A stretch of DNA of 64,000 nt from Escherichia coli (GTDB lineage: Bacteria; Pseudomonadota; Gammaproteobacteria; Enterobacterales; Enterobacteriaceae), in assembly GCF_003790525.1 (NCBI RefSeq), contig NZ_CP033635.1; one strand, 5' to 3'. Made by a program: the position numbers and the translations under genes. Below, in pieces: positions 14,606 to 18,908 of the stretch; the first letter of the stretch is position 1; every line of letters starts with the position of its first letter. A model generated the notes under the pieces. The model was not told where the DNA came from. It did not search any database and saw only the letters and a list, made by a program, of their open reading frames with translations.

Positions 14606-15855
<1,250 letters not shown>

Positions 15856-16032
15856 TAGAGTAAGTAACTGGTTAATTTACATTCTGGTCGCGTGCGCAAA
15901 TACGCTTTTCCTCACACAGTTGTCAAGTGTTACGTTTAGATAATTGCTATCCGGAAAAGCATCTGCTATTTATAGCGGCCTCATTTTTCCCCCGAACATG
16001 GGGATCGATAGTGCGTGTTAAGGAGAAGCAAC

Positions 16033-16488
16033 ATGCAAGAAGGGCAAAACCGTAAAACATCGTCCCTGAGTATTCTCGCCATCGCTGGGGTGGAGCCATA
16101 TCAGGAGAAGCCGGGCGAAGAGTATATGAATGAAGCCCAGCTGGCGCACTTCCGTCGTATTCTGGAAGCATGGCGTAATCAACTCAGGGATGAAGTCGAT
16201 CGCACCGTTACACATATGCAGGATGAAGCAGCCAACTTCCCGGACCCGGTAGACCGTGCAGCCCAGGAAGAAGAGTTCAGCCTCGAACTGCGTAACCGCG
16301 ATCGCGAGCGTAAGCTGATCAAAAAGATCGAGAAGACGCTGAAAAAAGTGGAAGACGAAGATTTCGGCTACTGCGAATCCTGCGGTGTTGAAATTGGTAT
16401 TCGCCGTCTGGAAGCGCGCCCGACAGCCGATCTGTGCATCGACTGCAAAACGCTGGCTGAAATTCGCGAAAAACAGATGGCTGGCTAA
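16033..16488 (+). CDS. dksA: RNA polymerase-binding transcription factor DksA
   Basis: [23 protein letters not shown]... with C4 zinc finger CESCGVEI...CIDC; 151 aa. Confidence 0.92.
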
Positions 16489-16516
16489 TTACAGCCGTTC
16501 CATCACGTTTACCACA

Positions 16517-16544
16517 GGCGGGAAATGCTCCCGCCTTATTTTTT
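16517..16544 (+). terminator. Intrinsic terminator after dksA
   Basis: ggcggga-aatgc-tcccgcc stem-loop followed by ttatttttt. Confidence 0.7.
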
Positions 16545-16554
16545 GTTCAAAGAG

Positions 16555-17451
16555 ATGACAGACACACACTATATTGGCCGCTTCGCCCCCTCTCCTTCCG
16601 GCGAGCTTCATTTTGGTTCTCTGATTGCCGCGCTTGGCAGCTATTTGCAGGCTCGCGCCCGGCAAGGTCGCTGGCTGGTACGCATAGAAGATATCGACCC
16701 GCCTCGTGAAGTTCCCGGTGCCGCAGAGACTATCCTGCGCCAGCTGGAACATTACGGCCTGCACTGGGACGGCGACGTTCTCTGGCAATCGCAACGTCAC
16801 CACGCCTATCGCGAAGCACTCGCCTGGTTATATGAGCAAGGACTAAGTTATTACTGCACCTGCACGCGTGCGCGTATTCAAAGCATTGGCGGTATTTACG
16901 ACGGTCATTGCCGGGATTTGCATCATGGACCAGACAACGCGGCTGTGCGAATTCGGCAGTTGCATCCGGTCACGCAGTTTACTGATCAACTACGCGGAAT
17001 TATTCACGCCGACGAAAAACTGGCGCAAGAAGATTTTATTATTCATCGTCGTGATGGTTTGTTTGCCTATAACCTGGCGGTGGTGGTCGATGATCACTTC
17101 CAGGGCGTCACAGAAATTGTTCGTGGGGCAGATTTGATTGAACCGACAGTGCGACAAATCTCGCTGTACCAGCTTTTTGGCTGGAAAGTGCCAGATTACA
17201 TTCATTTACCGCTGGCGCTTAACACACAAGGCGCTAAACTTTCCAAGCAGAATCATGCGCCTGCGTTGCCGAAAGGCGATCCGCGCCCGGTGTTAATCGC
17301 GGCACTTCATTTTCTGGGTCAGCAGGTAGAAACACACTGGCAGGATTTCAGCGTCGAGCAAATCCTTCAGTCAGCCGTCAAAAACTGGACGCTGACTGCC
17401 GTGCCTGAGTCGGCAATTGTAAATTCAACATTCTCAAATGCGTCATGCTGA
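16555..17451 (+). CDS. gluQ: Glutamyl-queuosine tRNA(Asp) synthetase (GluRS paralog)
   Basis: [26 protein letters not shown] (class I HIGH-like motif); upstream ATG at 16525 lies inside the dksA terminator loop so the downstream Met is preferred. Confidence 0.8.
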
Positions 17452-17510
17452 GCTATGATTAGCCGCTATTTTTTTGTCCTGAATGATGTTTGACACTACC
17501 GAGGTGTACT

Positions 17511-18908
17511 ATTTTTACCCGAGTCGCTAATTTTTGCCGCAAGGTGCTAAGCCGCGAGGAAAGCGAGGCTGAACAGGCAGTCGCCCGTCCACAGGTGACG
17601 GTGATCCCGCGTGAGCAGCATGCTATTTCCCGCAAAGATATCAGTGAAAATGCCCTGAAGGTAATGTACAGGCTCAATAAAGCGGGATACGAAGCCTGGC
17701 TGGTTGGCGGCGGCGTGCGCGACCTGTTACTTGGCAAAAAGCCGAAAGATTTTGACGTGACCACCAACGCCACGCCAGAGCAGGTGCGCAAACTGTTCCG
17801 TAACTGCCGCCTGGTGGGTCGCCGTTTCCGTCTGGCTCATGTGATGTTTGGCCCGGAGATTATCGAAGTTGCGACCTTCCGTGGACATCACGAAGGTAAC
17901 GTCAGCGATCGCACGACCTCCCAACGCGGGCAAAACGGTATGTTGCTGCGCGACAACATTTTCGGCTCCATCGAAGAAGACGCCCAGCGCCGCGATTTCA
18001 CTATCAACAGCCTGTATTACAGCGTGGCAGATTTTACCGTCCGTGATTACGTTGGCGGCATGAAGGATCTGAAAGACGGCGTTATCCGTCTGATTGGTAA
18101 CCCGGAAACGCGCTACCGTGAAGATCCGGTACGGATGCTTCGCGCGGTTCGTTTTGCCGCCAAATTGGGCATGCGCATCAGCCCGGAAACTGCCGAGCCG
18201 ATCCCACGCCTGGCAACCTTACTGAACGATATCCCACCGGCACGTCTGTTTGAAGAATCGCTGAAACTGTTGCAAGCGGGCTACGGTTACGAAACTTATA
18301 AGCTGCTGTGTGAATATCATCTGTTCCAGCCGCTGTTTCCGACCATTACCCGCTACTTCACGGAAAATGGCGACAGCCCGATGGAGCGGATCATTGAACA
18401 GGTGCTGAAGAATACCGATACGCGTATCCATAACGATATGCGCGTGAACCCGGCGTTCCTGTTTGCCGCCATGTTCTGGTACCCATTGCTGGAGACGGCA
18501 CAGAAGATCGCCCAGGAAAGCGGCCTGACCTATCACGACGCTTTCGCACTGGCGATGAACGACGTGCTGGACGAAGCCTGCCGTTCACTGGCGATCCCGA
18601 AACGTCTGACTACGCTAACTCGCGATATCTGGCAGTTGCAGTTGCGTATGTCCCGTCGTCAGGGAAAACGCGCATGGAAACTGCTGGAGCATCCTAAGTT
18701 CCGTGCGGCATACGACCTGTTGGCCTTACGAGCCGAAGTTGAGCGTAACGCTGAACTGCAACGTCTGGTGAAATGGTGGGGTGAGTTCCAGGTTTCCGCG
18801 CCGCCAGACCAAAAAGGGATGCTTAACGAACTGGATGAAGAACCGTCACCGCGTCGTCGTACTCGTCGTCCACGCAAACGCGCACCGCGTCGTGAGGGTA
18901 CCGCATGA
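17511..18908 (+). CDS. pcnB: Poly(A) polymerase I
   Basis: Nucleotidyltransferase ORF; start assigned to the known non-canonical AUU codon ([12 protein letters not shown]); track ORF begins at an upstream TTG. Confidence 0.8.

Follow-up and report, generated by a model that had tools for sequence, protein, structure and literature searches.

The gluQ start codon of Escherichia coli lies downstream of the leaky dksA terminator whose loop holds the first in-frame ATG

The hairpin between dksA and gluQ in Escherichia coli is best read as a leaky terminator of dksA, with gluQ being translated from read-through RNA at the AUG at position 16555 and with the loop AUG not serving as a start, an interpretation to which we assign a probability of roughly 0.93 (positions refer to the plus strand of the window, i.e., the entire 64,000-nucleotide stretch of DNA that was analyzed). 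According to this model, most transcripts from the dksA promoters would end at the terminator at 16516 to 16544, leaving an RNA 3′ end at 16540, and the minority reading through would be the only gluQ mRNA, gluQ being without a promoter of its own. On this read-through RNA, the ribosome would initiate at AUG 16555, which has no SD and lies in a U/A-rich stretch just past the hairpin, probably by SD-less initiation via this spacer, and would produce a protein of 298 amino acids (aa). The loop AUG, on the other side, would be locked in a stable stem-loop, and the SD-like GGGA in the stem would be spaced too closely to it. Since the terminator stops most transcripts and gluQ has no promoter of its own, GluQ-RS expression is expected to be well below that of DksA. 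The hairpin, the read-through, and the start at the second Met have already been published, and the biology is settled; the modest additions made here are comparative, namely, the invariance of the stem, the restriction of the loop ATG to one lineage, and the lack of an SD at gluQ in all species compared.

Layout of the dksA-gluQ junction

The region from approximately 16000 to 17500 is 100% identical to the sfsA-dksA-gluQRS-pcnB locus of E. coli SMS-3-5, and the same region was found in 5,424 of 5,426 complete E. coli genomes. On the basis of the RefSeq annotation of the identical SMS-3-5 sequence (locus 1534 to 1989), the dksA coding sequence occupies 16033 to 16488, with a strong SD (AAGGAG) preceding its start and a TAA stop codon at 16486 to 16488. 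This stop codon is enclosed by a small stem-loop (AUGGCUG-gcuaauua-CAGCCGU; 16477 to 16498; MFE, −10.3 kcal/mol), which is accessory. Separated from the stop codon by 28 nucleotides (nt), the intrinsic terminator stem-loop of dksA follows at 16516 to 16536, as supported by the sequence itself, RNAfold, a terminator scan, conservation, and published mutants. It consists of a 5′ arm, AGGCGGGA (16516 to 16523), a loop, AAUGC (16524 to 16528), and a 3′ arm, UCCCGCCU (16529 to 16536), which is followed by TATTTTTTGT; the U-tract, TTATTTTTT, was placed at 16536 to 16544 on the basis of the sequence and of a mapped RNA 3′ end at 16540 (see below). Folding of the hairpin alone with RNAfold returned exactly this stem, at −14.5 kcal/mol and with the loop ATG wholly unpaired, while the terminator scan reported eight pairs (six G-C) and a loop of 5 nt. 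For the 90-nt region around the hairpin, a folding z-score of −2.55 was obtained.

The loop contains an ATG (16525 to 16527) that opens the longest gluQ open reading frame in the list of such frames (16525 to 17451; 308 aa). The next in-frame ATG is found at 16555 to 16557, with 27 bases between the two codons and 30 nt from start to start. The first-pass annotation of this DNA, which had described a terminator hairpin with the first in-frame gluQ ATG in its loop, was accurate to the base with respect to the sequence, the open reading frames, and the RNAfold structure.

The N terminus of GluQ

The gene downstream of the hairpin encodes GluQRS (YadB), the tRNA glutamyl-Q(34) synthetase, as follows from full-length matches above the curated cutoffs and from a match to solved structures. 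The GluQRS equivalog models NF004312, NF004314, and TIGR03838 matched with 622 bits (cutoff, 453), 403 bits (cutoff, 256), and 379 bits (cutoff, 276.7), respectively, with alignments beginning at residues 5, 11, and 16 of the long form. The chains in PDB entries 1nzj and 4a91, 298 residues in length, aligned to residues 11 to 308 of the long open reading frame (E = 7e-199).

Direct evidence for the N terminus is available from two sources. First, Edman degradation of GluQ-RS from Shigella flexneri yielded a single sequence, TDTQYIGRFAP, corresponding to a start at the second Met and a protein of 298 aa (PMC3542578); the protein analyzed was His tagged and expressed from a T7-driven plasmid, from the intergenic region onward. 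Second, TRAINSPOTTER (NAR 2026, PMC13245402), a nascent-chain N-terminomics study in E. coli K-12, has one gluQ entry in its Table S1. The N-terminal peptide reported there, MTDTQYIGR, corresponds to residues 11 to 19 of the 308-aa UniProt entry P27305 and carries the label “aTIS, N-terminal truncation (10 aa)”; the table holds no row for the database start of gluQ in K-12, and its Ribo-seq and Ribo-RET fields are blank for gluQ, supporting neither start (PMC13245402). No N-terminal peptide of the loop-ATG form was seen in either the Edman analysis (S. flexneri) or the N-terminomics data (K-12). One N terminus has thus been reported, and the upstream start and its extension are not kept in relatives, contrary to what characterizes dual-start genes.

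The true start of gluQ is ATG 16555, giving 298 aa, as already published. We therefore assign the gluQ (gluQRS, yadB) coding sequence to 16555 to 17451, in agreement with the PGAP annotation (WP_032189010.1), the PDB chains, both N-terminal data sets, and the NCBIfam models, and we regard the ATG at 16525 to 16527 as the spurious start of the long open reading frame, based on the list of open reading frames, the comparison between species, and the N-terminal data. The earlier suggestion that the real start would follow the hairpin, rather than lie in its loop, is confirmed by Edman degradation, N-terminomics, the 298-aa PDB chains, PGAP, and the comparative data.

Curated records are divided on this point. 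PGAP annotates the identical sequence from 16555 (298 aa, WP_032189010.1), as do other E. coli records, whereas b0144 in the K-12 MG1655 reference (927 nt, 308 aa, NP_414686.3) starts at the loop ATG, as does UniProt P27305 (308 aa). The comparison with curated GluQ lengths, which the first-pass annotation had put forward as a check, thus formally goes against the downstream start where NP_414686.3 and P27305 are concerned and in its favor with PGAP and PDB. The K-12 RefSeq and UniProt entries are 308 aa long because the loop AUG lengthens the open reading frame; they are legacy longest-ORF calls that go against all experimental data.

Termination and read-through

The hairpin has been studied in the dksA/gluQ-rs junction of S. 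flexneri 2457T by Caballero et al. (BMC Microbiol 2012, PMC3542578). In that organism, dksA and gluQ-rs are cotranscribed, as established by a full-length dksA-gluQ-rs reverse transcription-PCR (RT-PCR) product, and there is no separate gluQ-rs promoter, a lacZ fusion without the dksA promoters showing baseline activity (PMC3542578). Removal of the intergenic region led to 10-fold higher lacZ activity, and mutation of the terminator stem of this orthologue raised activity more than 2-fold (PMC3542578). In stationary phase, the RT-PCR signal of the intergenic region was up 20-fold, with the dksA and gluQ-rs signals changing 1.3-fold (PMC3542578).

In E. coli K-12, the Term-seq data of Adams et al. 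(eLife 2021, PMC7815308) contain a 3′ end at NC_000913 position 160097 (minus strand). Converted as window position = 16525 + (160112 − K-12 position), this 3′ end corresponds to 16540, a position within the U-tract that lies 5 nt past the last G-C pair, and the flanking sequence printed for it matches the window. It was represented by a mean of 3,097,035 reads in LB at an optical density (OD) of 0.4 and was seen in several growth conditions, with an intrinsic-terminator score of 7.47, where a score of at least 3 is considered suggestive (PMC7815308). The Rho score was 1.16, scored “No,” and coverage upstream and downstream of the 3′ end was 250 and 62, respectively, without bicyclomycin and 250 and 72 with it (PMC7815308); it is because of this Rho score, and because coverage barely shifts with bicyclomycin, that the 3′ end is scored as Rho independent. 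By the same coverage values, a crude measure calculated from 800-nt windows, read-through amounts to about a quarter or less of the transcripts.

In K-12, the dksA hairpin with its U-tract is a strong, Rho-independent terminator. We found each of the features of an intrinsic terminator, namely, a GC-rich stem, a U-tract, in vivo 3′ ends, Rho independence, an effect of stem mutations, and compensatory substitutions, with 3′ ends, Rho independence, and mutant effects taken from the published K-12 and S. flexneri data. Expression of gluQ through read-through of the dksA terminator, proposed earlier from the sequence, is likewise upheld by reporter fusions and RT-PCR in S. flexneri and by Term-seq and coverage in K-12. 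A leaky terminator that acts in a purely constitutive manner does not account for the 20-fold growth-phase change.

Conservation of the junction in the Enterobacteriaceae

Scanning a single genome for each species, we recovered 80 Enterobacteriaceae loci, 79 of which were usable. The hairpin, GGCGGGA(G)-loop-(C)UCCCGCC, was present between dksA and gluQ in all 79 species and is, for that reason, far beyond chance. Over 69 distinct sequences, 93.7% of the cells in the stem alignment were paired, versus 51 to 72% when the 3′ arm was slid by one to three columns. Compensatory changes were observed in three pairs, with 10 cells changed on both sides (e.g., A-U to G-C in four species), a number reached in none of 500 shuffles; most of the terminator pairs are invariant and, hence, uninformative for covariation. 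The near-invariance of the stem is accompanied by drift in the loop (with CTT, TCT, TTT, and TCAC among the variants), the tail, and the spacer. At least five T's were found in the 9 nt past CCCGCC in 70 of the 79 species, the remaining 9, mostly Enterobacter, having three or four.

An ATG was present within the hairpin in only four of the 79 cases. It was in frame with gluQ in E. coli (window and K-12) and in E. albertii and out of frame in Escherichia sp. strain MOD1-EC7003, which has a tail shorter by 1 nt, and in Kosakonia pseudosacchari. E. whittamii has ATA in place of the loop ATG, the rest of the junction being unchanged; in an atypical “E. coli” isolate, AF16, the ATG is lost as well (AATTAC), and it is likewise absent in E. 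fergusonii (PMC3542578). The distance from stem to conserved ATG varied from 12 to 29 nt, falling into mod-3 classes of 24, 29, and 26 species, and in 12 species an in-frame stop codon was found between the hairpin and the conserved ATG. Since the stem-to-ATG length spreads over all three frames, and since stops interrupt it in these 12 species, the 30 nt upstream of 16555 evolve as a noncoding spacer. We accordingly list 16525 to 16554 as a ten-codon pseudoextension, a classification that draws on spacer length and stops as well as on the points at which the PDB and family-model alignments start.

Judging from its distribution among these species, the loop ATG is a recent, lineage-specific accident in Escherichia. 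Its in-frame occurrence is compatible with chance. Multiplying 3/64 (an ATG falling within 5 nt of loop), 1/3 (frame), and approximately 0.65 (lack of a stop in nine codons), we arrived at a rough estimate of about 1% for any one hairpin of this kind. Within E. coli, the 91-nt junction was identical in 1,315 genomes and 95 to 99% identical in approximately 4,100; sampled rows from the latter band mostly had one mismatch, which in K-12 is the His/Gln codon.

Translation initiation at the two AUGs

Opening the RNA from −20 to +15 was computed to cost approximately 17.9 kcal/mol at the loop AUG versus approximately 9.8 kcal/mol at AUG 16555. The loop AUG is preceded by an SD-like GGCGGGA with an anti-SD duplex energy of −6.3 kcal/mol; this motif makes up the 5′ arm and ends approximately 2 nt from the AUG. 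At AUG 16555, the corresponding duplex reaches −1.7 kcal/mol, i.e., there is essentially no SD, and no obvious SD was seen at the S. flexneri gluQ-rs start (PMC3542578). Across species, none of the 79 gluQ starts reached −4.4 kcal/mol or lower (median, +0.6 kcal/mol), in contrast to all 79 dksA starts at the same loci (median, −9.2 kcal/mol). Inefficient initiation that takes place on the U/A-rich spacer without an SD may thus be a conserved feature and, in combination with the terminator, would keep GluQ-RS scarce.

The first-pass annotation had also described the choice of start site as structure dependent. From the energetics, it is plausible that the hairpin itself excludes the loop AUG; the choice can be explained without invoking structure, though, because species without a loop ATG use the same conserved ATG. 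A second, weak hairpin, in which the U-tract (16537 to 16544) would pair with AAGAGAUG (16550 to 16557) and mask the downstream start codon, was considered as well, but it is not conserved and was treated as incidental. The probability of the start codon being unpaired is approximately 0.1 in the E. coli MFE fold, with a median of 0.43 over the 79 species.

Alternative explanations

Among the alternatives, we considered active regulation of read-through, whether through an attenuator, through a riboswitch-like element, or through a stem-binding protein or small RNA (sRNA), with a link to growth phase or stress. The 20-fold stationary-phase rise in intergenic RT-PCR signal, for which the authors themselves raise regulation (PMC3542578), is the main reason why we keep a small probability on this idea; the near-invariance of the stem next to a drifting loop, tail, and spacer fits it as well, as does the recurrence across species of the hairpin spanning the dksA stop codon. 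The latter hairpin, which is what suggested an attenuator model, was found in most of 70 distinct junctions, with a native mean of −7.1 kcal/mol versus −5.1 kcal/mol after shuffling of the 3′ part (P = 5e-11) and versus −6.45 kcal/mol with 3′ parts swapped between species (P = 0.011), P values that are uncorrected for phylogeny. An attenuator of the 1:2/2:3/3:4 type was nevertheless rejected: for antiterminator pairing with the 5′ arm, the native spacer has no advantage over a shuffled one (−5.86 versus −6.16 kcal/mol; P = 0.82) and, in the window, reaches only −3.0 kcal/mol versus −12.9 to −14.5 kcal/mol for the terminator. Moreover, with the dksA stop codon located 28 nt before the stem, a terminating ribosome should be unable to reach the stem. 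As for a riboswitch, that same spacer, at 28 nt, has neither the length nor the constancy that an aptamer would require, and an Rfam scan of 15850 to 17600 at E ≤ 1 gave no riboswitch match at the locus, its one hit being a snoRNA fragment, matched by chance, within dksA. RNAalifold, applied to 31 diverse junctions, returned no conserved intergenic helix other than the terminator, its only further prediction being an invariant helix without covariation inside the dksA coding sequence. All in all, we consider regulated read-through unlikely.

A related possibility is that the hairpin forms a conserved cis-regulatory platform, bound by a protein or sRNA or used for standby or S1 loading, that controls both read-through and SD-less translation. 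This reading was prompted by the near-invariant GGCGGGAG/CUCCCGCC stem, the SD-less gluQ start, the degenerate U-tract in Enterobacter, and the 20-fold change mentioned above, and we deem it slightly less probable still. If it were true, a queuosine-glutamylating enzyme would be controlled in step with the DksA/ppGpp stress response. A search of the accessible literature for later work on gluQ-rs regulation returned no paper beyond the 2012 study.

That the hairpin gates two starts, with a minor 308-aa isoform being made when the stem melts (through heat or a trailing ribosome), strikes us as very improbable. It is true that the loop AUG is single stranded in the loop, with SD-like bases before it, and that the loop ATG shows essentially complete fixation within E. 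coli, the 91-nt junction being identical or one base off in approximately 5,400 genomes. However, this fixation reflects the invariance of the whole junction and not of the loop codon in particular, opening the region around the loop AUG costs approximately 18 kcal/mol, and the TRAINSPOTTER table has no peptide or ribosome-profiling signal for the long form. Furthermore, E. whittamii and AF16 no longer have the loop ATG, and MOD1-EC7003 has it in another frame, each in a junction that is otherwise unchanged.

Even less credit can be given to the idea that the hairpin is mainly an element for stability or processing of the dksA mRNA 3′ end and that gluQ is served by a promoter of its own. A promoter-like match (TTCAAA-18-TATATT) is indeed present at 16546 to 16575, and the U-tracts in the Enterobacter clade are degenerate (e.g., TTGTTACCG), but promoter-like matches occurred at chance rate (two found, 1.9 expected), and a promoter at 16546 to 16575 would start transcription downstream of the gluQ ATG. 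The baseline activity of the promoterless fusion and the full-length dksA-gluQ-rs RT-PCR product also speak against it, as do the intrinsic-terminator score of 7.47 and the position of the 3′ end within the U-tract.

Finally, we dismiss as next to impossible a 308-aa GluQ-RS with loop ATG 16525 as its sole genuine start: this would agree with the longest open reading frame, the 927-nt NP_414686.3, the 308-aa UniProt entry, the SD-like GGCGGGA upstream (−6.3 kcal/mol), and the alignment of NCBIfam NF004312 from residue 5 of the long form, but Edman degradation and N-terminomics both give the second Met, the protein crystallized (1nzj and 4a91) has 298 aa, the dominant RNA 3′ end falls 15 nt inside the 308-aa frame, 76 of 78 other species lack the extension, have it out of frame, or have stops within it, and the SD-like bases sit in the stem, only about 2 nt from the AUG.

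Relation to known systems

The closest known system is the orthologous S. flexneri 2457T dksA/gluQ-rs terminator, with a stem-loop of approximately −14.7 kcal/mol (PMC3542578). There, too, the first predicted AUG is in the loop (“AUG in the bulge”) and the second AUG lies 27 nucleotides downstream (PMC3542578), the same as in the window. The sole difference is residue 4, which is Gln (CAG) in S. flexneri and K-12 and His (CAC) in the window and which is not mechanistic. Caballero et al. (PMC3542578), in the part of that article that deals with comparable loci, point to rpsU-dnaG-rpoD (before dnaG) and recA-recX, where, like here, a leaky intrinsic terminator is followed by a poor ribosome-binding site; the recX read-through of approximately 10% given there compares with a coverage of 62/250 at dksA-gluQ. 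Unlike the S. flexneri element, the dnaG and recX loci are not homologous to the one described here, and an in-frame loop ATG that misleads annotation of the open reading frame is a feature of dksA-gluQ.

Similarly, trp-type attenuators and preQ1 riboswitches place a terminator directly before a coding sequence, in the latter case that of a gene in the queuosine-modification pathway, to which gluQ belongs as well. In contrast to such systems, dksA-gluQ has no leader peptide, aptamer, or conserved antiterminator, and its upstream element is a full protein gene. With dual-start aTIS genes, as identified by Ribo-RET and N-terminomics, it shares two in-frame ATGs, here 30 nt apart, but one N terminus is observed.

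Consequences for annotation and biology

The annotation error has been carried into other resources. In the Term-seq table, the dksA 3′ end appears under gluQ as an “internal” end located 15 nt from the “start” (PMC7815308), a classification due solely to the use of the loop ATG in the K-12 annotation, and MTDTQYIGR was labeled an alternative TIS because the database start is wrong, not because there are two proteoforms. One NCBIfam profile, too, contains part of the spurious extension. Setting b0144 to 298 aa would clear these artifacts, and annotation hygiene is the main practical value of the present analysis, the general lesson being that a longest-ORF start may fall within an upstream terminator. 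For the biology of the organism, the finding means that a leaky terminator sets a low, dksA-linked expression level of a tRNA-modification enzyme.

Secondary structure in the dksA leader and at the dksA stop codon

A scan for the terminator consensus picked out a terminator-like hairpin in the 5' UTR of dksA, consisting of CTGCTATTTATAGCGG followed by CCTCATTTTT (window 15963-15985, + strand). Term-seq, the K-12 RNA 3'-end mapping, lists an "orphan" 3' end at NC_000913 160652(-), with some 48,000 reads in one condition (PMC7815308). This position corresponds to window 15985 and coincides with the leader hairpin; together, the hairpin and the 3' end may point to transcripts that terminate early in the dksA leader, or to an RNA derived from its 5' UTR.

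At the other end of the gene, a small stem-loop (AUGGCUG/CAGCCGU; window 16477-16498, + strand; -10.3 kcal/mol) holds the dksA stop codon inside its loop. Comparable hairpins are present in most of 70 distinct dksA-gluQ junctions, across which the arm behind the stop codon follows the synonymous choice made in the final Ala-Gly codons. Its palindrome also scored in the terminator scan, as a "terminator-like" match on the minus strand.

Variation of the dksA terminator among relatives

Several Citrobacter, Phytobacter, and other species carry extra sequence, including GC-rich palindromes, between the dksA stop codon and the intrinsic dksA terminator (window 16516-16536). Such an enlarged spacer, located upstream of the hairpin, was found in loci L012, L017, L020, L025, L037, and L053 of the Enterobacteriaceae set (one genome per species); it measured 114 to 151 nt in four of them (L012, L025, L037, and L053; the median spacer is 68 nt), and in L017 and L020 the insertion was visible by sequence reading. 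In these loci, the terminator hairpin remains next to gluQ and not next to dksA.

A U-poor tail behind an intact hairpin was seen in L024, L030, L033 to L035, and L049 (Enterobacter and Yokenella), as well as in L025, L043, and L061, with only 3 to 4 T residues in 9 (e.g., TTGTTACCG). Only some 14 nt lie between the end of the stem and the gluQ ATG in the Enterobacter group. Termination may be weaker in the species with U-poor tails, or the hairpin may have another role there.

Within E. coli, the most divergent of approximately 5,400 junctions (93% identity) belongs to isolate AF16 (NZ_OZ547176.1; positions 40-160 of locus L083). Its hairpin loop reads AATTAC, without an ATG, and the sequence 3' of the dksA stop codon is altered as well; the PGAP start of gluQRS is still the conserved ATG. 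AF16 may be a mislabelled member of a cryptic Escherichia clade.

Annotation of the gluQ and pcnB starts

The 308-amino-acid form of gluQ (extension at window 16525-16554; b0144 in K-12, NC_000913.3) has been carried into three resources: the Term-seq tables label the dksA terminator "internal" to gluQ (PMC7815308), the N-terminomics study TRAINSPOTTER labels the true start (window 16555) an "alternative TIS" (PMC13245402), and the NCBIfam NF004312 alignment begins at residue 5 of the spurious extension.

For the neighboring pcnB, the annotated start (position 3012 of L001, the matching SMS-3-5 locus) is an ATT codon at window 17511-17513 (+ strand), in agreement with the known non-canonical AUU start of this gene; the ORF listing instead places the start at TTG 17490.

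A Shine-Dalgarno match is absent from the gluQ start region (window 16535-16557 and loci L002 to L080), with 0 of 79 Enterobacteriaceae species having one, versus a strong match for dksA in all 79. Since every one of these species lacks it, the absence looks conserved rather than being a peculiarity of E. coli.
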